A stretch of 40,613 nt of DNA. Origin: a phage. A program made the translations under genes and the position numbers. The notes under the pieces were generated by a model, which made no database searches, was not told the DNA's origin, and saw only the letters and a program-made list of their open reading frames with translations. Positions 4,914 to 36,670 of the stretch are shown here, piece after piece (within the stretch, counting starts at the first letter, position 1; the number at the start of each line of letters is the position of its first letter). The stretch lies in the sequence record PZ019082.1. The stretch is one strand, 5' to 3'.

Positions 4914-5184
4914 GTGCCTGTGATTATTCCAGTTATTCCACTCAATTGTAAATGTTGGAATAAACTATTCGAATAGCTGACTTTTCACTGAAAATATGAT
5001 AAGCTCCACCTGAGCTTGTGAAGTATGAACAAGCGACCGCGGCGCGGGCAGGTAACGGAGCGGGACGTAAGTCCTGAGTGTAGTTACGCTGACGCGTTCG
5101 GAAGGGCCATACTCTATTGCTTGTGTAAAAAGTAACGGGTTTACTGAGATTACGCCGTTTCTATGTTTAAATGATAAGGACTAG

Positions 5185-5616: not shown

Positions 5617-5725
5617 TGATGCTGACGAGGATTTGGCTATCGACGTTCAGAACGCAGAATGCGCCCGCCAGAATCGTCTGAAGGTATTCCGGTTGCAGGA
5701 TTACGTGAGGAATATTCTGGAATAG
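5462..5725 (+). CDS. Rz1: o-spanin (Rz1-like) outer-membrane lipoprotein, overlapping Rz in a different frame
   Basis: GTG start with RBS AGAGGTGA; signal peptide ending in lipobox LASC; proline-rich mature region; overlaps and extends past Rz. Confidence 0.6.
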   Translation: MKSLSTLKRLVAACALSTMLASCSSPALLPTPIPSPDTTMMQPPCKLAPPSSDADEDLAIDVQNAECARQNRLKVFRLQDYVRNILE

Positions 5726-5804
5726 TTGCCTTGTATGTTGGAATAATTTATTCTTGACATGTAAATCCGGGTGGCCCGGGTTCCAACGTCCAGGGGACAT
5801 ACTG

Positions 5805-12890: not shown

Positions 12891-12998
12891 GTAATGTGAT
12901 AGAATAATTTTGCACCTAGTGTCGCGCACGAAAAGCGGTTGGTTACCGCCTGGTGCATTTCTCTTTAACCAACAACCTCTTAACCAAAGGATTAAAGA

Positions 12999-22863: not shown

Positions 22864-23001
22864 CTACTCTTCTGCTAACTTCTCCAGTACAAACGCCAGT
22901 TGCGCATTAGCGGCGTCTCTTTGCTGCCGTAGTCGTAGAACCTCTTCTTCGAGTTCCTTGATACGTTTTTGCAATGCTGGAATCGGCGCTACGATGTTCA
23001 T
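22864..23001 (-). CDS. small coiled-coil protein (45 aa)
   Basis: Not in ORF track; ATGA overlap with HNH stop; RBS GGAG 9 nt upstream; heptad-like KELEEEVLRLRQQRD. Confidence 0.3.
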   Translation of the reverse strand: MNIVAPIPALQKRIKELEEEVLRLRQQRDAANAQLAFVLEKLAEE

Positions 23002-23489
23002 GCGGTTTCTCCGTGGTTTTCATGAAATCCGTAAGCAGCTTCCGCGGCTTTACGCGCGGCAACAGCTTCGTTAAAATCATCAAACCTTCCAATAGTTTTT
23101 GTCTTTCTAAATTTGGTTATCTGCACCAACCACTTGCACCGCTCTTTGTCAAATGACACCCCTACCGCCCCAGACCTATTACGCCCAGTAGCCAGCCTGT
23201 TCATAGCGTTTTCTTGCTTAGTAACTACTCTTAAATTTGCGAGCCTGTTATCCGCGCGATTATGATTCTGGTGGTCTATTTCCATGCCGTCTGGTATAGG
23301 GCCATTGAACATTTCCCATATGACTCGGTGCGCGCGGTAGATAACTCCATTGTAGCGAAACTGAATGTAGCCGAACTTGTTTAGTGTTCCCGCTACCGCA
23401 CCTTTAGCAACATTTTTAGCGGGTTTTATGATCCATATCAGATTTCCAGTCTCTGGTTCATACCGTAGGACATTCTTCCAGATAAACAT
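22998..23489 (-). CDS. HNH endonuclease
   Basis: Motif EIDHQNHNRADNRLANLRVVTKQEN; TAATG overlap with upstream helicase stop. Confidence 0.8.
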   Translation of the reverse strand: MFIWKNVLRYEPETGNLIWIIKPAKNVAKGAVAGTLNKFGYIQFRYNGVIYRAHRVIWEMFNGPIPDGMEIDHQNHNRADNRLANLRVVTKQENAMNRLATGRNRSGAVGVSFDKERCKWLVQITKFRKTKTIGRFDDFNEAVAARKAAEAAYGFHENHGETA

Positions 23490-24910
23490 TATCGTTTCCT
23501 TCTCTTCATATAATTAAGTAGTTCGTCCTGTACAGACCTTTTCTCGTCTGTACGCGCGGCGACAACTTCATCAAGAGTATTTCGGGCTATTATTTGATAA
23601 ATGAATACAGACCGTTTGTATCCAGATTGCATCTGCCTTACCGGGCCTATACGCTCGATAACCTGCAGATAATGTTCCAGGTTCCACCCCTGACTAATAA
23701 ATGCCATGTGGTGTCCGCCATGTTGTAGCGACAGCCCGTGGCCCGCAGAAGCTGGGTGTATCAGGAGCATAGGTATCTCACCGCGGTTCCACGCTTCCAT
23801 CTGCTTATTGCCCTTAGCACCTTTTGCAAATGCCTGTGCTTGGGGGAATCGCTTAAGGATGCGCTCCAGTTCGTGCTTGAACTGATAGGCGACCAGTAAC
23901 GGCGCACCCTGTAACTCCTCAACAATTGACTCAAGCGCATCCAGTTTCGTGTCGTGCACTTTCTCCCATTCTTTGGTTGCTTCGCCGTCTTCGCCCGTCA
24001 CATACACAGCACCGGAAGCAATCTGCAAGCACTTAGCCGTTTTAGCGGCGGCGTTGGCGGCCTGCACCTCCCCACTCTCCAGTTCCGCGATTAACTTTTT
24101 CTCCATGTCGTCGTACGCCTGACGCGCTTTCTTCGGCAGGTCGATTTCAACCGGTACAATAATCGGCGCTTCACAACCAAACCACTCGGCGGGGTCGATG
24201 GTCAGGCTGATGTCTTTCATCTTCTGATGAATCTCATTATCGGCACCAGGTCGCGCGTGATATTCACGCGCCATAGCCGACTTACCTTTCTGTACCGAGT
24301 TAAACCAGCGGTCGGTGAATGCTGTGTACGATGAACCGAGTCGCTCACCGGCGTCGATAAACCAGTTCTGACCCCACAAGTCTTTGAGGCCGTTTGGCGA
24401 CGGCGTACCAGTCAGGTTGATGAAACGCCTAACCTTACCGAACGCCACTTTACTAAGCGCCTTTGCTCGCTTGCTTCCGCCAGAACGGCTACGGAATGAT
24501 TTAAGCTTCGTGCTTTCATCAGCAACAATAACGGTAAAAGGCCAGTCGTCTTTGCCGTAGTAGTCAATCAGCCACTCGATAACCTCGTAGTTGGTGCATA
24601 CCACGTTAGCGTCTGACTCCAGAGCCGCGATGCGGCGCTTCTCCGAACCTGTTGCATCGGCGACACTCAGACACGGGAAACCCCACTTAGTTTGTTCTGC
24701 GGGCCACGTACCAGACGCAACGCGCAACGGGGCAAGGATTAACACGCGGTCCTCTTCGGTAAGCTGCCCGTTGCGAAACAGTCGGTTGAGCACCCACATA
24801 GTAGAGGAGGTTTTACCCCCTCCCATGCCGCACCAGATATTACAGCGAGGGTGTTGCAACATGAACGAAGTCATGAGCTTCTGGTATTCACGCCTTTGAA
24901 ACTTACTCAT
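23489..24910 (-). CDS. SNF2/DEAD-like superfamily 2 helicase
   Basis: Walker A GMGGGKTSS, Walker B VIVADEST, motif III LTGTPSPNG. Confidence 0.8.
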   Translation of the reverse strand: MSKFQRREYQKLMTSFMLQHPRCNIWCGMGGGKTSSTMWVLNRLFRNGQLTEEDRVLILAPLRVASGTWPAEQTKWGFPCLSVADATGSEKRRIAALESDANVVCTNYEVIEWLIDYYGKDDWPFTVIVADESTKLKSFRSRSGGSKRAKALSKVAFGKVRRFINLTGTPSPNGLKDLWGQNWFIDAGERLGSSYTAFTDRWFNSVQKGKSAMAREYHARPGADNEIHQKMKDISLTIDPAEWFGCEAPIIVPVEIDLPKKARQAYDDMEKKLIAELESGEVQAANAAAKTAKCLQIASGAVYVTGEDGEATKEWEKVHDTKLDALESIVEELQGAPLLVAYQFKHELERILKRFPQAQAFAKGAKGNKQMEAWNRGEIPMLLIHPASAGHGLSLQHGGHHMAFISQGWNLEHYLQVIERIGPVRQMQSGYKRSVFIYQIIARNTLDEVVAARTDEKRSVQDELLNYMKRRKR

Positions 24911-25098
24911 TTTGCCACCAGAACTAACTCTTTACGTCCGAACGCCGTAACGTTACCGGTTACATCTTCAATAACCAGTTTACCGTTAGACTCGACGAAC
25001 ACCGTATCAACGGCAACAGGGCGACGGGTCTTAACGTTGAAAATCAGGTCACCAGGTACGATGTCACGTGCTGGTTTGCGGTCATATTCGTGTTTCAT
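24907..25098 (-). CDS. hypothetical protein (63 aa)
   Basis: ATGA overlap with helicase start; RBS AAGGA; preceded by promoter-like element 25132-25160. Confidence 0.45.
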   Translation of the reverse strand: MKHEYDRKPARDIVPGDLIFNVKTRRPVAVDTVFVESNGKLVIEDVTGNVTAFGRKELVLVAK

Positions 25099-25128
25099 TT
25101 CTCAATTCCTTATATTGTTGGTGTAGGG

Positions 25129-25413
25129 CTAACTATAATAGTTAGCTATTAGGTCGTCAACCTGTTTAAACGAACCAACGACAAAAACATTCGCGCCACG
25201 TTTACGCATCCGCGCGTGTTCACGTAGCTGGTGCGGGTCTGGCTTCGTGTTTTCGTCTTTCTTAACCTCGACGAACCAGACTATGCCGCCGGGGAGAATT
25301 ACCAGCAGGTCAGGAGCGCCTGAGCGCCCCTCGTAAGACAGCTTACGAACGAGGCCACCAATGGCCTCGAACATCTCTTTTGCGTATTTCTGAATCTTGC
25401 CTTCCGGGGTCAT
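25129..25413 (-). CDS. VRR-NUC domain nuclease
   Basis: PD-(D/E)XK-like motif PDLLV ... FVEVKK; 94 aa. Confidence 0.65.
   Translation of the reverse strand: MTPEGKIQKYAKEMFEAIGGLVRKLSYEGRSGAPDLLVILPGGIVWFVEVKKDENTKPDPHQLREHARMRKRGANVFVVGSFKQVDDLIANYYS
25132..25160 (-). promoter_or_regulatory. sigma70-like promoter TTGACG-N17-TATAGTTAG
   Basis: Minus-strand TTGACGacctaatagctaactatTATAGTTAG; lies within the 3-prime end of the VRR-NUC coding sequence; same architecture as 28687-28715 and 30806-30834. Confidence 0.5.
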
Positions 25414-25562
25414 GAGCGCAGAACCCAGGTTATAAACGCTCCTCCGAGAACGGCAACGCCAACAAACTTAAAGAACAGGCCGTAACAGAACATCGCAGCT
25501 ATTCCCGCGCCGAGTAACAGTGCGAGCATGGTTACTATCGCCCAAAATACAAACATTGTCAT
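25410..25562 (-). CDS. small hydrophobic membrane protein (50 aa)
   Basis: Not in ORF track; RBS GAGGGG 10 nt upstream; ATGA overlap with VRR-NUC start; sequence almost entirely hydrophobic. Confidence 0.35.
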   Translation of the reverse strand: MTMFVFWAIVTMLALLLGAGIAAMFCYGLFFKFVGVAVLGGAFITWVLRS

Positions 25563-25644
25563 AATACGCACCCCTCGCGTTTCGTGTGCTCAATACCGCA
25601 GCGCGGACAGATTCGGCAGTCTTCTTCGTAGAACCAGTAAATTT

Positions 25645-25776
25645 TCATTCCAGCACCCACAGATAAATTGCGATGAACATTCCCAATACCGCAGCCATCA
25701 TGCCGTATTGGCCCTCGTGACAATAGACACCGGCGGCAAATCCTGCCAGTAACGCGATAATCAGTTTACTTAGCAT
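25645..25776 (-). CDS. small hydrophobic membrane protein (43 aa)
   Basis: Not in ORF track; ATG overlaps last codons of DNA polymerase gene; RBS GGAG; hydrophobic throughout. Confidence 0.35.
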   Translation of the reverse strand: MLSKLIIALLAGFAAGVYCHEGQYGMMAAVLGMFIAIYLWVLE

Positions 25777-27946
25777 AGCGCTTCATCTCCGCACCTTCTG
25801 CCACAAGAGGGAACCCTTCGGCCCATTCCGGTAATTCGCACATTAATTTTTCCAGTTCAGCCACCGTGTACTCAGGTGTGTCTGGAGTTTCACACACTAA
25901 TTCATCGTGTACCGAAAGCACGATGGGGTACCCGCCGCCCTCAACATTAATCATCGCGTATGCGAGTAAATCACGGCACAGCGCCTGAGTGCAGTTTTCC
26001 ACCAGTTTACCGGAGTAGGTGTACTGGAAGCCCCACTGACGGGTTAACTGGTTTTCGCCCTGGTACTTGATGCGCACGTTAGTGGACACCTTCCCGTCTT
26101 CGTCTGCCTCTTTAGACACACTTAACCCGACGCCCGGATAAGACATAACGCGGCCCGACGGCAACGTCATGCGCAGCCACCAACCAGCGACTTTGTTGCC
26201 GTTGTTATCTGTTTCTACGTTACGCGAAAACTTAACTCCCCGCGGACCTGCAGTGAACTCTTTACCTGGGTTGCGGATAGCCGCCATAGCTGCGTCTTCA
26301 ATATCACGCCAGAATGCTACTGTTTCAGGGTGAGACTCCCGCCACATGCGCTTGATAGCGTCACAGGTGCGCCACACTTTCTTATCAAGAATATATGACG
26401 GCCGGTCGTCTTTTTCACCAGGACGTGGTTGTCGCTTGGCTTCCTGAATACGTGCCCACTCATATCCACGTGCGGTAGCGGTCCAGATGTGGTCGGGGAA
26501 AGTACCGTCCATTGTTTTAGCCATATCAACCAGGTCAAGGCCGAGGTTCTTGGCGAACTGTACGAATGCGCCGACACCGCCCGCGTAGCCAAGACCCAAT
26601 TCACAGGCTTTACCAATCTGGCGTAAGTCTTTACGTTCTTTCTTAATGTAATCCGGATCCATGCCAAACATCTTACCCGCGGTTACACAGTAAATATCCA
26701 GCCCAGCGCGGAACGTATCGAGCGCGGTTTCTTCTCCCGCCAGCCACGCAAGCCCACGGCCTTCAACGTTAGAGTAATCGGCAACGACAAACTTATGCCC
26801 TGCTTCCGGGATAATGCAGCTACGAACTGTCGATGCCGTCAGCTTGGCTACGTCAAATCGGCGGTGAGCACGACCCTTAAGTAACGCTGAAATGCCTTTA
26901 TCCAGTTCATCATCATGATAGTACCCGCGGGCCAGGTTCTGCGGCTGAAAGCCTTTACCCGCCCATCGCAAAGTACGTTTTGCCCCGCCGTACTGTAAAC
27001 AACCGCGGCGTCGGTCGTCCGACGAGCGGCCCAACAGCAGCGGGTTATATTTCGTTGATGCGGTGGATGCGGCCCCGAGGCGCATTTCGATAATCGTGCG
27101 AGCGTCGTCCGGTAAATCATCATCCGCCAGCAGGTCGTTAAGCGTCGACTTCTGCGCATTGTGGATGCGGTGCGCTGGCGCAAGTTCACGCAGAATCGGA
27201 AGGAAGTCTTTACCGGTAAGTGAGCCGCCGTATTTGCGTTGGGCTTCTTCCTGTAACTGTGCCTTGTGCTTCTCCACGGCTTCAATCGCTGCTTCTGCCA
27301 GCGCTACGTCAACCTTAAACCCGCGGTCGTTGATTAACTGGTCCAGTTCCAGTACACGGTCTTCAAACTCGGAGTTACCCCACCGCGGCAGCTTATGGAA
27401 GACTTCCCGCATCGCAGTGATGTCGCTCACGGCGTACTTGATGAACAGCGCCCACTCATCGGGATGTGTTTCAGCGGTGTAGCGGCGGATTTTGTAGTTC
27501 TTAGGTGTCGGTTTAGAAAAACGCTGAATCAGCGCCTTGCCGCGTTTGTCTTTTGCGTTGTCCGCAGACACGCCCAGCACTTCGCACAATGCGTCAAGTG
27601 AACCCGGCAGCGCGTGGCGAAACGCCCAAATCATCGTATCAATGGTGTTGCTTACCGGAATATCAAAGTCCCAGCAGTGTTTCATGATGAGCCTGTCGAA
27701 CATTGAGCCGTTGTGCCACACCATCTTAATGCGGCTGTTTGGCTTAACCAGACGGCGTAAGGCGCGGTGCAAATCCCCCGGCATGTCGCTGCCGTCTGTG
27801 CAATCCCATACCTGCACAGGCTCGTCGTCAAAAGCGTATGTGCAGATAAGCACTTCGGTAGTTGGGTGCTCTGCGTAAGCGTATGAACCGACTTTCTTTA
27901 AATCGGCTTCGGAGAATGTTTCAAAGTCTAAGAACAGGTAACTCAT
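25766..27946 (-). CDS. family A DNA polymerase with N-terminal 3-prime to 5-prime exonuclease domain
   Basis: Exo I FLDFETFS; motif A DYSNVEGR; motif B K..LGLGYAGG; motif C VHDE. Confidence 0.8.
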   Translation of the reverse strand: MSYLFLDFETFSEADLKKVGSYAYAEHPTTEVLICTYAFDDEPVQVWDCTDGSDMPGDLHRALRRLVKPNSRIKMVWHNGSMFDRLIMKHCWDFDIPVSNTIDTMIWAFRHALPGSLDALCEVLGVSADNAKDKRGKALIQRFSKPTPKNYKIRRYTAETHPDEWALFIKYAVSDITAMREVFHKLPRWGNSEFEDRVLELDQLINDRGFKVDVALAEAAIEAVEKHKAQLQEEAQRKYGGSLTGKDFLPILRELAPAHRIHNAQKSTLNDLLADDDLPDDARTIIEMRLGAASTASTKYNPLLLGRSSDDRRRGCLQYGGAKRTLRWAGKGFQPQNLARGYYHDDELDKGISALLKGRAHRRFDVAKLTASTVRSCIIPEAGHKFVVADYSNVEGRGLAWLAGEETALDTFRAGLDIYCVTAGKMFGMDPDYIKKERKDLRQIGKACELGLGYAGGVGAFVQFAKNLGLDLVDMAKTMDGTFPDHIWTATARGYEWARIQEAKRQPRPGEKDDRPSYILDKKVWRTCDAIKRMWRESHPETVAFWRDIEDAAMAAIRNPGKEFTAGPRGVKFSRNVETDNNGNKVAGWWLRMTLPSGRVMSYPGVGLSVSKEADEDGKVSTNVRIKYQGENQLTRQWGFQYTYSGKLVENCTQALCRDLLAYAMINVEGGGYPIVLSVHDELVCETPDTPEYTVAELEKLMCELPEWAEGFPLVAEGAEMKRYAK

Positions 27947-27963
27947 TATTTTCGACCCTTAGT

Positions 27964-27984
27964 AAAAAGGCCCAATGAAGGGCC
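27964..27984 (-). terminator. terminator-like hairpin (minus strand)
   Basis: GGCCC-TTCATT-GGGCC followed by TTTTT on minus strand, between DUF2815-like gene and DNA polymerase. Confidence 0.45.
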
Positions 27985-28005
27985 TTAGTTAAATTGATTC
28001 AGATA

Positions 28006-28632
28006 TTAGCGGCGACGACGTTCGCGGCGCGGTGCTTCATCTTCTTCGTCGTCTTCCAGGTCATTGACGCTTGCGGCGACTTTAGAACCACCAAACGCCT
28101 TACCTTCGCCGACGTATTTAATTCCCAGCAGTTTAACACCGAGGACTTTATATTTCTGGCTGAACCAGATTTCAACGCTTACGTTAGCGACGCATCCGCT
28201 GTAAACCTGTTCGCCTTCAATCTGTTCACCGTCTACATTGAAGTCCTGTTCTACCTGAGTCTCACCTTTTTTAGAGGTTATAATCAGCGGCTGTTTCTGC
28301 GCCTTCGCTTTGAAGTAGAAGCCTTCCGGGAAGTCTTCAAAGGGATTGTCACGCTCGGCAATGTCTTTAACAGCACATTTATCCATGTGCTTACCTTCGC
28401 CGTAGTTGGACCTCATCCACTTCTCTGCGGCGGCAGCACCTAACGCTTCTTCAACTACGGCGTAAACAGTGTCGTAAAGCGCATCGATTTGCGCATGGTC
28501 TGGCGGCAGGATAATAGTCGCGCTGTACTGGCCTTTAGTAATTGAGCCATCATCGTTTTCGCGGTCTTTTTCGCGTTCGAATACGTTAACCCAAGCAGTG
28601 TTTACTTTACGCAGATTTAATGTCAGTCCCAT
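28006..28632 (-). CDS. putative ssDNA-binding-like protein (DUF2815-like) with acidic/basic C-terminal tail
   Basis: 208 aa; position between DUF2800-like nuclease and PolA; C-terminus DLEDDEEDEAPRRERRRR. Confidence 0.35.
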   Translation of the reverse strand: MGLTLNLRKVNTAWVNVFEREKDRENDDGSITKGQYSATIILPPDHAQIDALYDTVYAVVEEALGAAAAEKWMRSNYGEGKHMDKCAVKDIAERDNPFEDFPEGFYFKAKAQKQPLIITSKKGETQVEQDFNVDGEQIEGEQVYSGCVANVSVEIWFSQKYKVLGVKLLGIKYVGEGKAFGGSKVAASVNDLEDDEEDEAPRRERRRR

Positions 28633-28686
28633 CTTGATTTCTCGCTTTTAAGTTTACTCCGGGAAGCTGCCCGGCCAGTGATTAGA

Positions 28687-28715
28687 ACTATAATAGCTAA
28701 CTATTCAGGTGTCAA
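28687..28715 (-). promoter_or_regulatory. sigma70 consensus-like promoter TTGACA-N17-TATAGT
   Basis: Minus-strand TTGACAcctgaatagttagctatTATAGTTC in intergenic region upstream of 28632 start. Confidence 0.6.
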
Positions 28716-28719
28716 CACT

Positions 28720-29961
28720 TTATTCTAAATCTTCTCCACTAACCTGATTCCACTCAGGCCGTTTGTCGTCTGCCGTTGCAACGCATGGCGCTCCCGGCTT
28801 ACGGGTAATGAAGTCTTTCAGTTCTTCTTCCGGTATTACTTTAACAGCTTCGGTCGGTGTCATTAGCACTTCTTTAGTTAGCTTGTCGCCGTAGAGTTCT
28901 GTTACTTTCTCCGCGTCTTTCCACGCACGATTACTGGGACGGCCTTCAACCAGTTTGTACCCAGGCACTTTCTTACCTGAATGCAAAGCGGCGGCCATCG
29001 CTTTTTCAACCTTGTCGATGTGCTGGCGCAACAGCGGCAACTTCTCATACTCAGCTACGAGTTGCTCAGGCGTAAGTTCCAGCGCAAAGTCGTCCTCCAG
29101 TTCTTCCGCCAGTACCGCGTTAACGGTTTTTGTACGCGCGGCGCACTGTTCTGAGAACCGACACCACTGACAACCATCTGCAGAAGGCTTGAAGTCCGAC
29201 GCTTTCAGGTTCTTCTTGCCGCGGGAATAAGCATCAAGAGCCAACAGCGCGCGTTTATGTGCGAACTTAGCGAACAGTTCCAGACCTTCAACCGAGATGT
29301 CCCACTCCGACGCACCGCCAGCATACGGCTGGAAGATTACCAGACGAACGGTTGTTATGTTATAACGTCTCTTGAGTCGGCGATAAACACCGAGAGCGTA
29401 AAGCATAAGCTGCTTGTTTTCTTTCGCTTCGACGCGATGTCGCCCGGTTTTAAGGTCCCCAATAATGAGCATGTGCTCGTCGGTGTTAGCCAGTTCCTGA
29501 ACGGCAACAAGGTCAGCGGTCCCGAACGTCTCAACGCCTTCATACCCAGGATGCAATACCTCAGTGAGATTGACGCGCATTTCCAGCTTGGCGTAAGTCG
29601 CAACGTCGATAATCGCTTTGCAGTAGTCGGTATACTTGCGCACCTGCTCAATCATGTCAGCCGTAATCAGTACCGCGCCTTTCACCGGGCTGATTAGAGC
29701 CTTAATCTGACCTTTGCCCTCATCCAACACGTAAGCACCAACTTCACGCTCTAATGGAAACGCAGTGCCTTTGATGTACTGGTTAAGGTGCATTTCCGCT
29801 ATGGTGTGCATAGTCGTACCTAATACTGCGGCCTTACCGGACGTGTTAGGAATATCTTTTTCACAGGCCAGTGATGCAGCACAGCTTAGCCACTTTTTAG
29901 CGCCAGACGGCGACAGCAGGGCGTGCACATCGTTATTGCCGCCGCGTTCTTTTAAAATCAT
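28720..29961 (-). CDS. PD-(D/E)XK nuclease with Fe-S cluster cysteines (DUF2800 / Cas4-like)
   Basis: N-terminal HALLSPSGAKKWLSC and C-terminal CQWCRFSEQC cysteine pattern; ATG at 29961 with ATGA coupling (track start GTG 29976). Confidence 0.55.
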   Translation of the reverse strand: MILKERGGNNDVHALLSPSGAKKWLSCAASLACEKDIPNTSGKAAVLGTTMHTIAEMHLNQYIKGTAFPLEREVGAYVLDEGKGQIKALISPVKGAVLITADMIEQVRKYTDYCKAIIDVATYAKLEMRVNLTEVLHPGYEGVETFGTADLVAVQELANTDEHMLIIGDLKTGRHRVEAKENKQLMLYALGVYRRLKRRYNITTVRLVIFQPYAGGASEWDISVEGLELFAKFAHKRALLALDAYSRGKKNLKASDFKPSADGCQWCRFSEQCAARTKTVNAVLAEELEDDFALELTPEQLVAEYEKLPLLRQHIDKVEKAMAAALHSGKKVPGYKLVEGRPSNRAWKDAEKVTELYGDKLTKEVLMTPTEAVKVIPEEELKDFITRKPGAPCVATADDKRPEWNQVSGEDLE

Positions 29962-30230
29962 ACCCTGTTCTCCCACTGGTCGATTAAATGTCGTGTCTTA
30001 TGCCCACAATGCATAGCCCACCCATACATCGACTCAAAAACATAAAAGTCAGGCTTGGCGAAAGTCGTGCGCTTAATCTGTGACACGTGACGGCCTAAAG
30101 ATATAGGCCGCGGTACTTTGCCTAAGTACGCCATCTCTTCCATCTGGTGCGCACCGGACGGCGCACGCAACAGCCATAGTGCCTCCGTGTTGTCCCGCCT
30201 GTCTACGGCCCGGTAGAGTTGGTAAATCAT
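29958..30230 (-). CDS. hypothetical protein (90 aa)
   Basis: RBS GAGGG; coupled to downstream nuclease gene; contains HCGHKTRH. Confidence 0.45.
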   Translation of the reverse strand: MIYQLYRAVDRRDNTEALWLLRAPSGAHQMEEMAYLGKVPRPISLGRHVSQIKRTTFAKPDFYVFESMYGWAMHCGHKTRHLIDQWENRV

Positions 30231-30250
30231 AATTCCGACCCTCAGTTAAA

Positions 30251-30266
30251 GCGGCCCGAAGGCCGC
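30251..30266 (-). terminator. weak terminator-like hairpin
   Basis: GCGGCC-CGAA-GGCCGC palindrome; only a short T-run on minus strand. Confidence 0.3.
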
Positions 30267-30273
30267 GAGATAG

Positions 30274-30774
30274 TTAGTCTTCTTCGAAATACTTGTTCTT
30301 GATTGCCGTCAGGCGTTCAAGGTATTCAGCAAGGTCTTCATCTTTAATCGCGGCAATCTTCATCTTCTTACCGGTGAACTCCTCCAGCAGTTCATCAGAA
30401 TCATCACACGCGGCATCGCTCGGACCTTCGTTAATGGCGTCGTCGATAGCCTGAATCTGGTCACGCAGAGACTGGTAATCGACTTCTTCTTTCTCTTCTT
30501 CCGGCTCTGGTGTCGGCTCCTCTACTTTAGCTTTACGCGGCTTGCGTTTTGGCTTCTCTTCTTCAACCGGTTTAGTATCAACTACGTCTTCACCTTCGAC
30601 CGGGATTTCTTTTGATCCTTCTTCTGCACACTTGGCTACTGCTTCTTTGGTATACGCTACCGTCTCTACTTCCAGAGGCGCGGAAACCTGAACAACTTGT
30701 TTCACGCTGTTCGCAGCAATCAGTTCATGAGCAACTACGAAACGTTCCAGTAATACTAAGAATTTCTCTAACAT
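30274..30774 (-). CDS. highly acidic early protein (166 aa), function unknown
   Basis: Strong RBS GAGGAGAGA; first gene after promoter 30806-30834; Glu/Asp-rich with one KPKRKPRKAK patch. Confidence 0.5.
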   Translation of the reverse strand: MLEKFLVLLERFVVAHELIAANSVKQVVQVSAPLEVETVAYTKEAVAKCAEEGSKEIPVEGEDVVDTKPVEEEKPKRKPRKAKVEEPTPEPEEEKEEVDYQSLRDQIQAIDDAINEGPSDAACDDSDELLEEFTGKKMKIAAIKDEDLAEYLERLTAIKNKYFEED

Positions 30775-30805
30775 TTGTTTCTCTCCTCTCGTTTGGTATG
30801 GGCTA

Positions 30806-30834
30806 ACTATAATAGCGAACTATTCACATGTCAA
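30806..30834 (-). promoter_or_regulatory. sigma70 consensus promoter TTGACA-N17-TATAGTTAGCCC
   Basis: Minus-strand TTGACAtgtgaatagttcgctatTATAGT followed by conserved leader AAACGAGAGGAGAGA. Confidence 0.65.
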
Positions 30835-30838
30835 TGGG

Positions 30839-30867
30839 CTTTTCTAAAATAATTAATATGGTACTAT
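30839..30867 (+). promoter_or_regulatory. putative promoter for XRE regulator gene (-10 TACTAT, weak -35)
   Basis: gTACTATTCACATATCAA upstream of RBS AAGGAG and ATG 30899; AT-rich upstream region. Confidence 0.35.
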
Positions 30868-30898
30868 TCACATATCAACTGACTAAGGAGTAATTGAC

Positions 30899-31114
30899 AT
30901 GCAACCATCTGAACTAGGCATTCGTGTAGAACAACGCCGTAAAGAACTCGGCATCTCCCAGCGCCGTCTGGCTGTCCTGACCGGGGTTTCCCAGGGCGCG
31001 ATTAACCAGCTTGCGCTCGGGGTAACTCAGGACGTCCGCCCGGCGACGCTGTTTAAACTGGCGGAAGTGCTGCAAGTAGACGCCAAGTGGCTGGCGTTAG
31101 GTGAAGGGGCTTAA
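30899..31114 (+). CDS. XRE-family helix-turn-helix transcriptional regulator (71 aa)
   Basis: HTH segment ISQRRLAVLTGVSQGAINQLALG; RBS AAGGAG; followed by terminator. Confidence 0.7.
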   Translation: MQPSELGIRVEQRRKELGISQRRLAVLTGVSQGAINQLALGVTQDVRPATLFKLAEVLQVDAKWLALGEGA

Positions 31115-31129
31115 CGCCCCTTTCTTTTT
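31104..31129 (+). terminator. rho-independent terminator
   Basis: GGGGC-TTAAC-GCCCC hairpin followed by TTTCTTTTT. Confidence 0.6.
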
Positions 31130-31131
31130 AT

Positions 31132-33402
31132 CTATTCCAAATCCTCCTCTGTCACCACCAGCATTTCATTCGGTTCGTATATTGTCTTCGGAATCTTGTT
31201 ATCGTTTATACCCCACGGCAATCGGTATTGCTTAGGGATAGGCCTGTTGTTGTTATCCAGACCTGAGACGATAACCCCGGCCTCGTGCATCTCTTCCAGT
31301 TTCTTTCGAAGGTCGTTATTAGCGTTAATCGGTACGCCGTAACTATCTTCTTTCGCTGCTTTGACGATAGCCGACATGGAAAACCCCCGCTTGTCGTCAC
31401 CCTGCTCCTGCAATTTACCTAACGCGTAAATAACCGTAGCTTCTTTGGTATCCAGTTTCTCGAACTGACCTACCTTTTCTTTAACAGCCGCTTTACCTTC
31501 CTTTGTCAGCCCTTCTTCCCGCTCTTTCTCCTCGTCGGTCTTGAATGGTTCGAAACCCCACGGCATCAGCACAAGCGCCTTGTGTGGTTCAGGCAGGTCG
31601 AGGTTTACGATTGTGCCGTATTCCTCCGTGCTTCCGAGGAACTCAACCGCGCGGTACTCTTTCGGTGGTGGCGCTTCACGGAACTGTACCGACTCCAGTA
31701 CCATGCCAACCGTCTTCTGTTGAGGCCCGTGCTTAAATTTCGAGTGGTATACATTTATTTGACGTTCGGTCGCGCGTTCGATTGTTAGTTCCACGTCGAC
31801 ACCAGCGTACAGCGCCCCACTGCCACGGGCTTTCTTTCCACCTTTCGGCGTATGGTGGACAACGCCTACCGCGGCTTTAGTTGCGTCGCGTACTTCTTTC
31901 AGGATGGCGATAACTTTACCCATGCCGATTGTCGTTGATGAACTGTTCTCGTCGAACTTATCAATCGTCAGGGCCAGCGTCTGGTTGAGGGTGTCGAACG
32001 CAACCATACCAATAGGCTCGTCGCCCGCAGTTTCGCGCATTAACTTAATCAGGCTTTTCAGTTTCCCGACTTCGCCCATGTCGATAACATGTACATAATC
32101 TTTACCTTCCTCGCCATATTTAGCCGCTAGTGCGTCGATACGTGTGCGCGTAGCTGCGCCACCTTCACCGTCAATATAGAAATGGTGGCAACGCTGGGTA
32201 TCTGCCCCGGCAAATCTGTATCCGGCGGCGCTAAGGTACATCATCCCCAGCGTATAAAACGATTTGTACGTTCCAGACTCCCCGACGATATCCCAGATGC
32301 AGTCTGTCGGCATGTATCCTTCTACGACGAAATCAGCCTTTACCGGTTCCGGTAACTCGTCCTCCTCTGAGTCCTCGTCGTCTTCCAGGTCGTCCAGACT
32401 GCATGAAACTGACTCACGCGCACCCCAGCCGATGGCCTCGGCGACTTCACTGAATGGAAGACCAGTCGCATCACACGCATACTTCCACACCTCTTTCGGT
32501 GACATGCCCTCGGTTGCCGTGATGTCTGTGTCGTGAATCATGGTTACGTTAGGTGCTTCGTACCCCTCGCGCGGGAAGCACAGCAGGAAGTCGTCCGGGC
32601 GCGGGGTCGGGTCGCTGTAGTTTTCTGCGTGTTCCGGTGTGGCGGGCATCTTAAGTCCACGCGGCGTCATGATGCCGCCGTATTCGAACGCCAGTGCCTC
32701 GAACGCATCAGTAAATGCCGTGCGCAGTTCTTCTGGTATCTGGTAATCCGATGCGCTGCTCACCTCGTAATCCGGGATGCCTTCCAGTAACTCGTCCGGG
32801 TCAATCAGGTCGTTACGGCGCGACCAGATAACGGTAGAGCCGACAGGCGGCAGGTACATCGGCTGCGACAGAGTGAACCCGCTGTGGTCCGCACCCATGC
32901 CTTTGAAGAAGTGCTCCAGCAATCCATGACGAACACGGATGATGCCACCACCTTCGACCGGGCGGCCCAGCGGCATGACGACGCGAAAGCGCGGTGACTC
33001 ATCGGTATGTGATGCCGTGGTGTAGAGGCACATAGCCAGGCGGCTACGCTTAACCAATCGCACCGCCTCCTGATACTCGTCAGGTGTTGCACTGTCGAAG
33101 TCCAGATACGCCAGCGACGATTTGTTTACAGACGCATCGCAGCGATAGAAGAAGCCTTTACGCGCCTGCTTAAAGTCCCCAGTTTCCGGGTCTTTTACGG
33201 TGCTGTGCGTTGAGTCGCACGCGGCGGTGATATACCCCGGCGCGGTCTTCGGGTTAATTCCGTCGCGAACAGCATCGAGCGGCTGGATTAACTCTTTCAG
33301 GTCGTCCAGTGTTGCCGTGTGTGTGGTTCTGACGTTTATATCCTTTTTCTCCGCCCGCGCGTTGCGACGAGACCACGAGTAGGATAAAATTACATCGGAC
33401 AT
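31132..33402 (-). CDS. putative replicative primase/helicase-like protein (756 aa)
   Basis: Central P-loop-like GESGTYKS and RecA-type layout; size and position in replication module; RBS GAAGGAAA; family assignment uncertain. Confidence 0.5.
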   Translation of the reverse strand: MSDVILSYSWSRRNARAEKKDINVRTTHTATLDDLKELIQPLDAVRDGINPKTAPGYITAACDSTHSTVKDPETGDFKQARKGFFYRCDASVNKSSLAYLDFDSATPDEYQEAVRLVKRSRLAMCLYTTASHTDESPRFRVVMPLGRPVEGGGIIRVRHGLLEHFFKGMGADHSGFTLSQPMYLPPVGSTVIWSRRNDLIDPDELLEGIPDYEVSSASDYQIPEELRTAFTDAFEALAFEYGGIMTPRGLKMPATPEHAENYSDPTPRPDDFLLCFPREGYEAPNVTMIHDTDITATEGMSPKEVWKYACDATGLPFSEVAEAIGWGARESVSCSLDDLEDDEDSEEDELPEPVKADFVVEGYMPTDCIWDIVGESGTYKSFYTLGMMYLSAAGYRFAGADTQRCHHFYIDGEGGAATRTRIDALAAKYGEEGKDYVHVIDMGEVGKLKSLIKLMRETAGDEPIGMVAFDTLNQTLALTIDKFDENSSSTTIGMGKVIAILKEVRDATKAAVGVVHHTPKGGKKARGSGALYAGVDVELTIERATERQINVYHSKFKHGPQQKTVGMVLESVQFREAPPPKEYRAVEFLGSTEEYGTIVNLDLPEPHKALVLMPWGFEPFKTDEEKEREEGLTKEGKAAVKEKVGQFEKLDTKEATVIYALGKLQEQGDDKRGFSMSAIVKAAKEDSYGVPINANNDLRKKLEEMHEAGVIVSGLDNNNRPIPKQYRLPWGINDNKIPKTIYEPNEMLVVTEEDLE

Positions 33403-33460
33403 GTTGTATTTCCTTCAGCAAGTAATTTGGCCTCGGCGTTCACCGCGTCGGGGCTTTCTT

Positions 33461-33736
33461 TTATTCCAGGTCGCGGGAGATATTACCCTCGGGGACCAAC
33501 ACTTTTCCAATACTTCTCGCTTTCCCGTTAAGCGGCGTTGCTCTTGTTGCCCGATAAAACTTTCCTTTATTAAGAACCTCTCCGTGTTGCTCAAGAACAC
33601 TTAAAGCATGTTTAATCGGATTTACACCGTAATTATCTAACCGGTATCTACGAAGCCCGTCTAGTGTAAAAGCGCCGTTCGCCTCGGTCAGTCTGCGTGC
33701 GCACATTAATACGTGTTTCTGGAATTTAGTTAGCAT
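33461..33736 (-). CDS. hypothetical protein (91 aa)
   Basis: RBS AAGGAG 10 nt upstream; overlaps end of upstream regulator gene. Confidence 0.45.
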   Translation of the reverse strand: MLTKFQKHVLMCARRLTEANGAFTLDGLRRYRLDNYGVNPIKHALSVLEQHGEVLNKGKFYRATRATPLNGKARSIGKVLVPEGNISRDLE

Positions 33737-33905
33737 CTTTTACGTTCTCCTTAATCCAAGCCTCCACGGTAGCGCGGTCAAATGTGCCTGGCTGCCGGTA
33801 GCCGTTAATAACCCGGCAACACTCGGGGAACTTACCTGACCGAAGCCAGCGATTAAGTGTCATAGGGGAAACTCCGATTAAGTCTGCTACTTCTTTCTGT
33901 GTCAT
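33726..33905 (-). CDS. AlpA-like / excisionase-like HTH DNA-binding protein
   Basis: MTQKEVADLIGVSPMTLNRWLRSGKFPE matches AlpA-type HTH pattern; ATG at 33905 with RBS AGAGGG (track start TTG 33935). Confidence 0.55.
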   Translation of the reverse strand: MTQKEVADLIGVSPMTLNRWLRSGKFPECCRVINGYRQPGTFDRATVEAWIKENVKDAN

Positions 33906-33934
33906 TTTACACACCCTCTTTATCAAGTGAAACA

Positions 33935-33963
33935 ACTATAACACCTACAATAACTAAACACAA
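33935..33963 (-). promoter_or_regulatory. putative promoter TTGTGT-N17-TATAGT for minus-strand regulatory/primase operon
   Basis: Minus-strand motif 29 nt upstream of ATG 33905; divergent from plus promoter 33968-33995. Confidence 0.4.
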
Positions 33964-34300: not shown

Positions 34301-34329
34301 TTGCACACCCCAACATAATAGGATACTAT
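34301..34329 (+). promoter_or_regulatory. early promoter TTGCAC-N17-TACTAT
   Basis: Followed by TCACTTATCGG and leader AACGAGACAGAGGAG; 40-bp element repeated on minus strand at 12851-12890. Confidence 0.6.
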
Positions 34330-34363
34330 TCACTTATCGGAACGAGACAGAGGAGTGAGGGTT

Positions 34364-34549
34364 ATGTTTAAGAAGGGTCAGTTGGTGAGAATTTTGGAGA
34401 CAGGGGGGTTAGCGGTTATTTCATTCGCACACCACAAAGAATGTAGTGTTTATTTTGCAAAATCTTTAACGGGGTCCTATCTCACCGTGTTATACGCACA
34501 AGATATGAAACTCATCGGCAACAATTTTAAATTCAAAGGGGCGAAGTGA
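34364..34549 (+). CDS. hypothetical early protein (61 aa)
   Basis: ATG with RBS AGGAG 8 nt upstream (track ORF starts at GTG 34355). Confidence 0.5.
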   Translation: MFKKGQLVRILETGGLAVISFAHHKECSVYFAKSLTGSYLTVLYAQDMKLIGNNFKFKGAK

Positions 34550-34752
34550 TGGAAGAATTATTTGAAGAACTGAAACATCATGAGTTCGAGGAGATATATT
34601 TTGTAGCTGAACGCTACGAGGTGCATTTAGTGGACGGGGTTACAATTATTACAATGGATAGCCAGCAAATGCTAAATAGCTTACGGGCTATACGAACGGC
34701 ATCTAATCATGATGCTCGTGCCGACGACTCCGAGGGAGGTTGCCGTGAATAA
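34549..34752 (+). CDS. hypothetical early protein (67 aa)
   Basis: TGATG overlap with upstream stop. Confidence 0.45.
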   Translation: MEELFEELKHHEFEEIYFVAERYEVHLVDGVTIITMDSQQMLNSLRAIRTASNHDARADDSEGGCRE

Positions 34753-34812
34753 TTACCCGTTCATTTTAATTGTCAGCGCCGTTTATGTGGTGCACGCGTT
34801 GCGGGGGTTGGT

Positions 34813-35007
34813 ATGAGTCCATATAACGAATCCCGCTTACGCCGTCTGATTGGTGGTCTGCGCGCCGCCGAGTTTGTTGTTGAATGTTGGGAGAAGGTGC
34901 AATATGCCCCATGGAAGTCGTGGCATTTGGCTCATGCTAAGGAGGTAGCACAGTACCGTGAGTACAAGTTAAACAGTTTCCTTAAACACCACGGGGTTGA
35001 GTTATGA
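34813..35007 (+). CDS. hypothetical early protein (64 aa)
   Basis: ORF with G-rich RBS. Confidence 0.45.
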   Translation: MSPYNESRLRRLIGGLRAAEFVVECWEKVQYAPWKSWHLAHAKEVAQYREYKLNSFLKHHGVEL

Positions 35008-35153
35008 GAGAAGCATTTGAACGGTGGGCCGTAGTCGAGGGTCTGCCGGTTAACAAGGGTTCAAAGAAAGAGTACCTGAACGTTAAGACGCGTCTCGCGT
35101 GGCGGGCGTGGAAAGCTGGTGTGCAAGCCCGAGCTGGTGTAACAGGTCAATAG
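35004..35153 (+). CDS. hypothetical small protein (49 aa)
   Basis: Not in ORF track; ATGA overlap with upstream stop. Confidence 0.35.
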   Translation: MREAFERWAVVEGLPVNKGSKKEYLNVKTRLAWRAWKAGVQARAGVTGQ

Positions 35154-35208
35154 GTTACTATTTGGCTTAGTGACTTACGCTGCTACACAGCAGCGTACAA
35201 CTTTAACT

Positions 35209-35281
35209 TAGTGTCGTCAAAAAGCGACACTTCCCTAAGACACTGTTGGGTCAGGAATAAAGTGTCTCCAGTTAGCGACAC
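35209..35281. promoter_or_regulatory. array of AGTGTC / GACACT half-sites forming two inverted repeats plus an extra half-site
   Basis: AGTGTCG-N8-CGACACT (35209-35230), AGACACT-N16-AGTGTCT (35237-35266), CGACACT (35275-35281); just upstream of promoter 35301. Confidence 0.45.
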
Positions 35282-35300
35282 TTTGCACCAATAAAATTTA

Positions 35301-35329
35301 CTTGCACACTAAGATAGAATAGGCTACTA
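35301..35329 (+). promoter_or_regulatory. early promoter TTGCAC-N17-TACTAT
   Basis: Same architecture as 34301-34329; followed by TCATTTACAC and leader AAACGAGAGGAGAGA. Confidence 0.6.
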
Positions 35330-35361
35330 TTCATTTACACAAACGAGAGGAGAGACAGAAG

Positions 35362-35481
35362 ATGGGTTGGTACGGTAGCTGGACATTAGGCGAACTGGTA
35401 GACGCTTACGAAATAATGGGTAGCACTTCGGTGTGCGACGGCGACACTAAAGCGATAACAATGGGGGTTGATGATGAGTAA
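35362..35481 (+). CDS. small early peptide (39 aa)
   Basis: Not in ORF track; ATG directly after conserved leader AAACGAGAGGAGAGACAGAAG. Confidence 0.35.
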   Translation: MGWYGSWTLGELVDAYEIMGSTSVCDGDTKAITMGVDDE

Positions 35482-35992
35482 CAAAAACGAAGTATTCGAG
35501 TGCCTGATTGACCAACTACGGCAGCAGGTAAATAACAACCAGTGTGAAGACCTGGCGCATGAGGTGCTGTCACTTAAGAATCAGTTACGTGATGCTTCGG
35601 CGCTGGTGGCCGAGTTACAGCGAGAGCCGCAACATCAGATTGACCTGGCGTCGGGTGTGTATAGATGGTCTACCGCACATTTCGACGAGAAAGGTAAAGT
35701 CACCAAGGTCGAGAGTGGGGTTAAGACAGAGCAATCCGGTTGCCGTAAAGAAGACGTGCAGGAATGTGAGCACGATTGGGTTGAGTTTCACGGTTTGTTT
35801 ATTGCAGAGGGGGACCTGCGAAATGAACCTGGGTATACCTTCTGCCGTAAATGCGGGCTGAAAGAATACTCCCGTAAATGTGAACATGAATGGTCCATGG
35901 TAACTGGCGACGGCCCAAGTTTCTATGAGTGCGATGTGTGCGGAGCCCGTAGTAAAGATTTACCGTACGACTTACGGTGGTTGGCACTATGA
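35471..35992 (+). CDS. cysteine-rich protein with two zinc-ribbon-like CEH[DE]W ... C..CG modules
   Basis: ECEHDWVEF...FCRKCG and KCEHEWSMV...CDVCG; track ORF starts at TTG 35468. Confidence 0.5.
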   Translation: MMSNKNEVFECLIDQLRQQVNNNQCEDLAHEVLSLKNQLRDASALVAELQREPQHQIDLASGVYRWSTAHFDEKGKVTKVESGVKTEQSGCRKEDVQECEHDWVEFHGLFIAEGDLRNEPGYTFCRKCGLKEYSRKCEHEWSMVTGDGPSFYECDVCGARSKDLPYDLRWLAL

Positions 35993-36194: not shown

Positions 36195-36377
36195 ATGGTT
36201 GCTCGTAAAGGCTTTTATGAAGATGGTCATTTCGATAGCAAAGTAAACGGTGAATACGTCACATACGAAGACTACGCGAAACTTGAAGCCGAGTTACAGA
36301 AATACAAAGACCAGTTCCCGGATTACGTCGAGTGCGCGAACTGTGGGTCAGTTACACATGTGGAGGGGGTGGAGTGA
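36195..36377 (+). CDS. hypothetical early protein (60 aa)
   Basis: ATG with RBS GGAG 8 nt upstream; C-terminal CANCGS motif. Confidence 0.45.
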   Translation: MVARKGFYEDGHFDSKVNGEYVTYEDYAKLEAELQKYKDQFPDYVECANCGSVTHVEGVE

Positions 36378-36670
36378 TGTCTCTGGCTACTGATATCCTG
36401 AAACGTAGCGGCCTCGCGCCGCTGTCACCGAGAGCGAACACCCGGATATACAAGCGCCGCCGTAATGCGCTGTACCCTGAGATTCAGGCCAGGCGCAAAG
36501 CGGTACGCGCCTGTGGATTCCAGAACGGGAAGGCCGTGAATCTTGGTGAGTTTAAAACCCAGGAACGCGCAGCAATCGCTAATCGGTTATTTAATTACTG
36601 GAAGTCGCTGGGGTACGATGATATTCCAACGAAACCACAGAGACGACAATACATCTGGCGTCATAAATAA
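36377..36670 (+). CDS. basic hypothetical protein (97 aa)
   Basis: TGATG coupling; Arg/Lys-rich; track ORF starts upstream at 36332. Confidence 0.4.
   Translation: MSLATDILKRSGLAPLSPRANTRIYKRRRNALYPEIQARRKAVRACGFQNGKAVNLGEFKTQERAAIANRLFNYWKSLGYDDIPTKPQRRQYIWRHK

Follow-up and report, generated by a model that had tools for sequence, protein, structure and literature searches.

A duplicated palindrome at a terminator-to-promoter junction of a Kagunavirus genome, tentatively read as tandem RNA hairpins

Results

A palindrome cluster between two co-directional operons

The sequence record PZ019082.1 (40,613 nt; 40.6 kb), referred to here as the window, is essentially a whole Kagunavirus genome and carries a cluster of AGTGTC/GACACT half-sites and hairpins at the junction of two rightward operons, which is the subject of this study. 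Kagunavirus is a genus in the Guernseyvirinae and includes K1G/K1H-like virulent Escherichia coli siphoviruses. A 2-kb query around the cluster matched 301 phage records, nearly all of them Escherichia Kagunavirus and Salmonella Jerseyvirus. The terminase and structural genes are located on the plus strand, followed by a minus-strand replication block (22998-33935) and by plus-strand small open reading frames (ORFs) from about 34355 into the lysis genes. The upstream operon consists of the promoter cassette P34301 (34301-34329) and the ORFs of 34355-35153, read rightwards. The palindrome region starts 23 nt 3' of the stop codon of ORF 35004-35153, lies on the transcribed strand and ends before the next promoter, a cassette at 35302 with which the co-directional downstream unit begins. 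The features of the junction are as follows.

35004-35153, plus strand: last ORF of the upstream rightward operon (49 amino acids, phrog_15836), which is driven by the promoter cassette 34301-34329.
35149-35162, unstranded: AATAGGTTACTATT, a perfect AATAG-N4-CTATT copy overlapping the stop codon, with no usable -35 element.
35176-35197, plus strand: hairpin 1, TACGCTGCT-ACAC-AGCAGCGTA, a perfect 9-bp stem of -13.9 kcal/mol, followed by CAACTTTAACTT and no T-run.
35198-35209, plus strand: 12-nt linker of the variant B cassette described below; its CTTTA core (35201-35205) never changes among relatives, which differ at four further positions.
35210-35231, unstranded: dyad 1, AGTGTCG-TCAAAAAG-CGACACT, RNA hairpin of -10.7 kcal/mol.
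35233-35274, unstranded: lineage-specific 42-bp segment, with a copy of the 9-bp direct repeat GCGACACTT on either side (35224-35232 and 35275-35283).
35239-35244, plus strand: orphan half-site GACACT (AGACACT at 35238-35244), for which pairing with 35261-35267 is possible (-7.8 kcal/mol).
35261-35282, unstranded: dyad 2, AGTGTC-TCCAGTTAGC-GACACT, with extended arms AAAGTGTC/GACACTTT at 35259-35284, RNA hairpin of -9.5 kcal/mol.
35283-35288, plus strand: TTGCAC adjoining dyad 2, the counterpart of the TT(G)CACC that adjoins the dyad in relatives.
35302-35330, plus strand: predicted promoter TTGCAC-17-TACTAT, with an A/T-rich stretch upstream and containing the palindrome AATAGGCTACTATT (35318-35331).
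35347-35364, plus strand: Shine-Dalgarno sequence GAGGAG (35347-35352) and start codon ATG (35362-35364), both belonging to the ORF that opens the downstream operon.

An earlier note, made from the sequence alone, had described this region as five clustered copies of one hexamer in alternating orientation. All motifs listed there exist in the sequence, displaced by 1 nt to the right relative to the positions it gave: the hairpin GCTGC-TACACA-GCAGC at 35179-35194, the inverted repeat AGTGTCG-N8-CGACACT at 35210-35231 (dyad 1), the repeat of opposite orientation AGACACT-N16-AGTGTCT at 35238-35267 and the last half-site CGACACT at 35276-35282. The clustering itself is real and non-random, but the grouping into two inverted repeats and a single site can be replaced by a more economical parse, namely two copies of the dyad AGTGTC-N10-GACACT (35210-35231 and 35261-35282) plus an orphan GACACT at 35239-35244. 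The two dyad copies (22-23 bp, AGTGTC-N10-GACACTT) have the same geometry, lie 51 bp apart start to start and are 78% identical, with all five differences between them in the spacer.

Genome-wide, GACACT/AGTGTC is not over-represented (18 copies vs 17.35 expected); five of the 18 copies lie inside 73 bp, which is the densest cluster among all hexamer classes of the genome, and in 300 first-order Markov simulations no 80-bp window held more than three copies, compared with the five observed. AGTGTC-N(4-20)-GACACT occurs twice against an expectation of 0.05, and for the palindrome of hairpin 1 a genome-wide search would be expected to return 0.02 matches. The second-densest hexamer cluster of the genome is formed by GGAATA/TATTCC, with three copies in 4925-4962 and four in 5685-5745.

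Three alleles occupy the junction in related phages

We compared 61 loci carrying the hairpin, taken from GenBank phages and IMG/VR, with 7 metagenome loci added. The 18 stem positions of hairpin 1 are invariant across the 61 loci, and the 4-nt loop is variable (ACAC, GTGT, GAGT, ACTC, GTGC). What follows the hairpin falls into three alleles. Allele A (44 of the 61 loci) continues with a T-run (TCATTTTTCTCATTTTTGTT...), forming a canonical intrinsic terminator, and has no AGTGTC dyad. Allele B (15 loci) continues with CA(A/C)CTTTA(A/G)(A/C)(T/C)T and AGTGTCGTCAAAA(A/G)G(C/T)GACACT and thus holds dyad 1 only; this cassette is carried by about 77 deposited Guernseyvirinae genomes. Both A and B are present in Kagunavirus and in Jerseyvirus. 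Allele C, the arrangement of the window with orphan and dyad 2, makes up the remaining two loci, which are the window itself and one metagenomic contig (L016, identical to L072).

In alleles A and B a conserved 45-nt block (TCACCAAACGCAACAATCGAAGCGACTATTGCAGGAGATGCAACA, block 3) comes next, then an optional, highly variable small ORF, for which block 3 provides the ribosome-binding site and the ATG, and then the promoter cassette. The window is devoid of block 3, which is replaced, together with the optional ORF, by the 42 bp bounded by GCGACACTT, which contain the left arm of dyad 2 as well as the orphan. Searches for further copies of this arrangement gave no blastn match of the 63-nt allele-C core (35228-35290) in 50,697 phage records and no exact match of dyad 2 in IMG/VR, and a metagenome scan for additional variant-C sequences returned only the contig already known. 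One 18-mer match for allele C in IMG/VR was discarded as a chance match within an unrelated coding region.

In the metagenomic contig the orphan is GACTCT, and dyad 2 has the right arm GACATT (G-U compatible on the plus strand). Between the window and this contig, two changes fall on 30 half-site positions and eight on 74 other positions, hence there is no excess constraint on the half-sites, and the mutated orphan and dyad 2 arm make the five perfect copies a feature of this one genome. A five-half-site operator array, as suggested in the earlier note, is therefore not kept by the relatives, of which 44 loci lack the dyad altogether, 15 have dyad 1 only and one has mutated sites; on the explanation favoured below, the alternating array would be a by-product of palindrome duplication and not a five-site operator.

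Rearrangement at the hairpin-to-promoter interval

The material between hairpin and promoter differs among the relatives. At least 4-5 unrelated small ORFs, or none, were observed behind block 3 in different loci (L002, L008, L009, L010, L012, L022, L026, L116 and others), and judged by this sequence comparison the hairpin-to-promoter interval is an insertion hot spot for morons. A comparable arrangement is known from the PeSL cassettes of T4-type phages, composite promoter/stem-loop modules which are repeated in the genome, bracket small variable ORFs and mark modular exchange (PMC2839356, PMC4122927). The window likewise has three paralogous promoter/5' untranslated region (5'UTR) cassettes, each after a hairpin, and its relatives carry different small ORFs at the junction; however, this is an analogy only. 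The phage family is another one, and the AGTGTC dyad is located outside the repeated module.

Block 3 itself looks like a degenerate version of the promoter cassette (TTCACC-18-GACTATT). A -35-like hexamer, TTCACC/TTGCAC, adjoins the dyad in every variant-B locus, and the TTGCAC at 35283-35288 in the window is, on comparison of the alleles, probably the remnant -35 of a deleted block-3 mini-promoter. The sequence 3' of dyad 2, TTGCACCAA|TAAAATTT, looks like a deletion junction, at which the allele-B TT(G)CACCAA that follows the dyad would have been joined to the pre-promoter ACACCAA|TAAAATTT.

Three features of this locus suggest hairpin-driven template switching or duplication. The first is that the loop of hairpin 1 (35185-35188 in the window; also L003, L011 and L022-L061) is found as the reverse-complement pairs ACAC/GTGT and GAGT/ACTC, which indicates repeated loop inversion by template switching inside the palindrome. 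The second comes from Escherichia phage vB_EcoS-K1_SXAU_B4 (OQ696342.1, locus L004, at about 462-505), where the dyad has grown to a 38-nt near-perfect palindrome (TTTAACTTAGTGTCGTC-AAAA-GGCGACACTAAGTTAAA, 17-bp arms, -24 kcal/mol) and the flank downstream now reads as the complement of the linker. The third is the 9-bp direct repeat around the 42-bp segment. A donor for this segment was not found, with only 11-12-nt matches at chance level.

Predicted tandem hairpins at the end of the upstream operon

The earlier note had left open whether the region is a structured RNA element or an operator array, and had proposed RNA folding as a check. The structured-element half of this suggestion fits the position at an operon end, while the five-site operator half is not borne out by the relatives. 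Folding of the plus strand from 35150 to 35300 gave -47.4 kcal/mol with a z-score of -4.3, and the minimum free energy structure consists of tandem hairpins at hairpin 1, dyad 1 and dyad 2. Among the features of an intrinsic terminator, a stable G+C-containing stem-loop is present, but the U-tract (at least 5 T in 8 nt, 3' of the stem) is missing for all three hairpins, whose tails read CAACTTTA, TCCCTAAG and GCACCAAT, and no terminator-like site was scored in 35100-35400 of the window. In the relative L001 the hairpin 1 homologue is followed by TCATTTTTCT and was scored as a terminator, and in phage Shashou hairpin 1 with its T-run is annotated as one. The window junction thus shares with this Guernseyvirinae terminator the identical stem TACGCTGCT/AGCAGCGTA and the location, between the final ORF of the rightward early operon and the same promoter cassette. 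It differs from this terminator in having CAACTTTAACTT and the AGTGTC dyad instead of the T-run.

Taken together, the explanation that we favour, albeit tentatively and with somewhat less than even confidence, is a terminator-to-promoter junction in which a palindrome cassette took the place of the terminator tail and was later partly duplicated; any effect of it would come from tandem RNA hairpins on a read-through transcript. The ancestral and commonest junction would be the 9-bp-stem hairpin with T-run, the short conserved block, the optional small ORF and the promoter cassette. In variant B, a 35-nt cassette containing the single 22-bp palindrome AGTGTCG-N8-CGACACT would have taken the place of the T-run. 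Variant C would have gained a 51-bp unit (the 42-bp segment bounded by the 9-bp GCGACACTT), giving the second palindrome copy and the orphan arm, and would have lost the conserved block. The plus-strand transcript from P34301 is predicted to fold into the three tandem hairpins (-13.9, -10.7 and -9.5 kcal/mol). As none of them has a U-tract, intrinsic termination should be weak, and RNA polymerase would be expected to read through into the downstream operon. The hairpins might at most serve as 3'-end or processing barriers, and any RNA-stabilising role is likewise putative.

REP-type extragenic palindromes stabilise upstream mRNA. The window element is similar to these in that tandem stable hairpins without U-tracts, in alternating orientation and with a copy number varying between strains, are located at the 3' end of an operon; it differs in occurring at one locus only, not dispersed, and in not having been found in bacterial genomes. 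The substitutions in the dyad arms are in line with a function as RNA. Only two were seen (L005 and L016), both C-to-T on the 3' arm, which yields G-U on the plus-strand RNA and A-C on the minus strand, so that pairing is kept only in the plus-strand RNA; with two events, this is suggestive. An attenuator-type alternative pairing (3:4 vs 4:5) was discarded too, as L016 has a disrupted 3:4 stem.

Several points weigh against the tandem-hairpin explanation. Rfam gave no match at E values up to 10 in 34900-35500 and none at the gathering score across the whole window, and covariation was not observed; since 16 of the 17 pairs in 12 aligned variant-B/C sequences never vary, the remaining one changing from G-C to G-U, covariation is uninformative here and speaks neither for nor against a structure. 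The spacer of dyad 1 (8-10 nt) hardly varies and, in contrast to the loop of hairpin 1, is never found inverted; a plain hairpin would not need such a spacer. Both dyads share the exact N10 spacing and are 51 bp apart, corresponding to about five helical turns, and spacing and phasing of this kind are often seen with cooperative operator sites. Moreover, transcript ends for these phages were not found in the literature, where the sole transcriptome paper found is at the gene level, and no paper on this palindrome element was found.

The dyads as a possible DNA operator

An unlikely alternative is a DNA operator, in which AGTGTC-N10-GACACT would be bound by a dimeric phage or host protein and cooperative binding or looping would modulate the promoter at 35302; in variant B, the single dyad would then act on the adjoining mini-promoter. 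Besides the two perfect 6+10+6 dyads of the same geometry, far in excess of expectation and with all inter-copy differences confined to the spacer, this is favoured by the conservation of dyad 1. Its arms are invariant in 17 haplotypes, as is most of the spacer, and the six variable positions of the 34-nt B cassette all fall outside the 12 arm positions (hypergeometric p ~0.055). The spacer is never inverted, the 51-bp phasing places both dyads on roughly the same helical face and the -35-like hexamer always adjoins the dyad in variant B. In addition, the promoter at 35302 matches only 7/12 consensus positions and could use a factor.

The distribution of the dyad argues in the opposite direction. 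It is missing in about 72% of the relatives that have the same promoter cassette and the same candidate regulators, and its presence shows no correlation with the HTH_17 allele, a 91-aa neighbour or any of nine nearby ORFs. The dyad is confined to this one place in the genome: no further copy was found in the window at up to three mismatches, whether near a promoter or elsewhere, the paralogous promoters 34301 and 12890 being without it; no other copy was found in the allele-B phage K1H, and dyad 1 is absent from the bacterial genomes searched (185,579 species). In L016, the one variant-C sequence besides the window, both the orphan and an arm of dyad 2 carry mutations. The centres of the half-sites are separated by 16 bp (about 1.5 turns), a spacing unusual for simple helix-turn-helix (HTH) dimers. 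The dyad centres, at about -65.5 and -116.5 from a start placed 7 nt after TACTAT (35325-35330), lie outside the promoter core. Finally, Jerseyvirus and Kagunavirus copies differ by 1 change in the 34-nt cassette and by 4 in the upstream 76 nt; purifying selection on the dyad between the genera was rejected because the upstream flank is equally similar, which rather indicates a recent exchange with its right boundary just after the dyad, and the low divergence of the dyad is thus no proof of selection.

Three genes come into consideration as regulators.

30899-31114, plus strand: XRE-type HTH gene (Pfam HTH_3, E = 1e-12).
33726-33935, within the minus-strand replication block 22998-33935: AlpA-like HTH_17 gene.
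35468-35992, plus strand: Zn-ribbon protein (174 amino acids, phrog_6094), second ORF of the downstream operon, with CxxC-X25-CxxC.

The earlier note had named the XRE and AlpA-like proteins as candidate binders of the half-sites. The dyad does not track the AlpA-like HTH_17 allele among the relatives, and for the XRE protein a far stronger candidate operator exists at other places in the genome, AATAG-N4-CTATT. ORF 35468-35992 is the only real CxxC...CxxC ORF of the genome and has weak Pfam matches (DUF7577, Zn_Ribbon_Prim); its C-terminal half is strongly divergent among relatives. An AP2-like DNA-binding domain in ORF 36332-36670 was unsupported by Pfam or PDB searches.

The activator sites of the P2/P4/186 late promoters, TGT-N12-ACA at about -55, are bound by the Ogr/Delta/B zinc-finger proteins. 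Both dyads contain TGT-N12-ACA (35212-35229 and 35263-35280) and precede a promoter whose -35 is weak, but their centres are further upstream, the other two paralogous promoters are without such a site, and in relatives the distance between dyad and promoter varies by more than 150 bp. The sole CxxC...CxxC ORF, 35468-35992, gave no Pfam match to an Ogr_Delta-type protein, and an Ogr/Delta activator site was rejected on the position and on the absence of the protein.

Paralogous promoter cassettes and the AATAG-N4-CTATT palindrome

The promoter TTGCAC-17-TACTAT that had been proposed at 35301-35329 is present at 35302-35330. It was not picked by a simple scan and is plausible because it belongs to three paralogous promoter/5'UTR cassettes, TTGCRCAC...ATAATAGGNTACTATTCA...GAGGAG, at 34301 (+), 35302 (+) and 12890 (-). 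The cassettes at 34301 and 12890 are each preceded by a terminator-like hairpin and have no AGTGTC dyad. A leader, ...AACGAGA(G/C)AGAGGAG..., is also common to the cassettes 34301-34354, 35302-35361, 12890-12830 (-) and 30824-30775 (-), which precede different operons.

The palindrome AATAG-N4-CTATT occurs 12 times in the genome vs 0.89 expected, with seven perfect copies (12861, 25137, 28692, 30811, 34317, 35149 and 35318) and five with one mismatch (3344, 4972, 19877, 30855 and 38203). Three copies (25137, 28692 and 30811) occupy the spacer of minus-strand promoters close to the consensus (TTGACA/TTGACG-17-TATAGT), and three others (12861, 34317 and 35318) overlap the -10 of the TTGCRC-17-TACTAT cassettes. 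It also matches the consensus reported as 'phage promoter' by PHIRE for phage fBC-Eco01 (PMC9825357). This palindrome looks like the main operator of the genome and a better candidate for binding a regulator than the AGTGTC dyads. The XRE gene (30899-31114) stands alone on the plus strand inside the minus-strand replication block (region 30775-31131), with divergent AATAG-N4-CTATT promoters at 30811 (-) and 30855 (+), a layout that would fit an autoregulated repressor acting on AATAG-N4-CTATT.

Discussion

Apart from an operator, four further explanations were weighed against that of tandem hairpins. The palindromes might be a functionless relic, the neutral outcome of slipped duplication or palindrome-driven template switching within a moron hot spot, and would be tolerated because the downstream operon has its own promoter. 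The rearrangements described above agree with this, in particular the direct repeat flanking the 42-bp segment, the loop inversion of hairpin 1 and the extended palindrome of L004, as do the several unrelated small ORFs gained or lost exactly at this spot, the decay of two of the five half-sites in L016 and the three interchangeable alleles that are uncorrelated with their neighbours. However, dyad 1 is unchanged in about 77 deposited genomes of two genera and no donor for the 42-bp segment was found. Overall, we regard a relic as improbable, slightly more so than an operator.

A more speculative idea is that the junction alleles are interchangeable parts with different logic, a constitutive terminator on the one hand and, on the other, a sequence-specific element (linker plus AGTGTCG-TCAAAAAG-CGACACT, duplicated in this phage), at which a putative phage or host factor, binding DNA or nascent RNA, would gate read-through or the promoter; we give this little credence.

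A special case of RNA recognition would be a nut-like site, with the CUUUA(A) of the linker as boxA-like and dyad 1 with its CAAAAA loop as boxB-like sequence, loading an antitermination factor. As in lambdoid nut sites, a short, conserved, single-stranded CUUUA lies a few nt upstream of an A-rich-loop hairpin on an early transcript. All 12 aligned relatives keep CUUUA (35201-35205) in a linker that varies at other positions, and the A-rich loop is conserved too. The transcript that carries the element comes from an early promoter, and this allele has no terminator tail. The geometry of stem and loop does not agree with this, as the boxB of lambdoid phages has a 5-bp stem with a GNRA-like pentaloop and dyad 1 an 8-bp stem with a CAAAAA hexaloop. 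Furthermore, only the 5 nt of CUUUA match the boxA consensus CGCUCUUUA, no N-like arginine-rich protein was recognised among 10 neighbouring ORFs, the loop of dyad 2 differs, and the site is single in the genome and missing in most relatives, which together render a nut-like site very improbable.

A packaging (pac) signal, or iterons of a replication origin used by the primase-helicase (31132-33402), might be suggested by the short motifs repeated in both orientations, the cumulative GC-skew minimum near about 34 kb and the opening of several GenBank records near this region. Both were rejected as the least probable explanation, since most relatives with the same replication and packaging genes are without the motif (missing in 44 of the 61 loci), the skew minimum coincides with the switch in transcription direction, and PhageTerm found no defined termini for the variant-B phage fBC-Eco01 (PMC9825357).

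If the tandem-hairpin explanation is true, this is an ordinary operon junction and its value is mainly descriptive. For the Guernseyvirinae, it presents the terminator tail at one junction as a swappable allele (T-run, one palindrome or duplicated palindrome) and the junction as a hot spot for the gain and loss of small ORFs. It also calls for caution, because a repeat array in a single genome should not be read as an operator when relatives do not keep the array. If instead the palindrome binds a factor, it could become a handle on the unstudied temporal control of phages used in therapy and biocontrol, such as K1-specific coliphages and Jersey-like Salmonella phages. In this respect, AATAG-N4-CTATT is a more promising lead than the AGTGTC palindrome.

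Two minor observations concern the half-sites and the strand opposite to the cluster. A lone GCGACACT half-site is located at 12918-12925 (-), 27 nt upstream of the -35 of the 12890 (-) promoter and just after a terminator-like hairpin; being without a partner arm, it may be due to chance. A minus-strand ORF of 32 codons (35183-35281) covers the entire palindrome cluster; it is without a convincing ribosome-binding site and probably spurious. It is open as well in L016 (10147-10245, minus strand), starting with GTG in the window and with ATG in L016, and the two versions differ by three amino-acid changes and one synonymous change.

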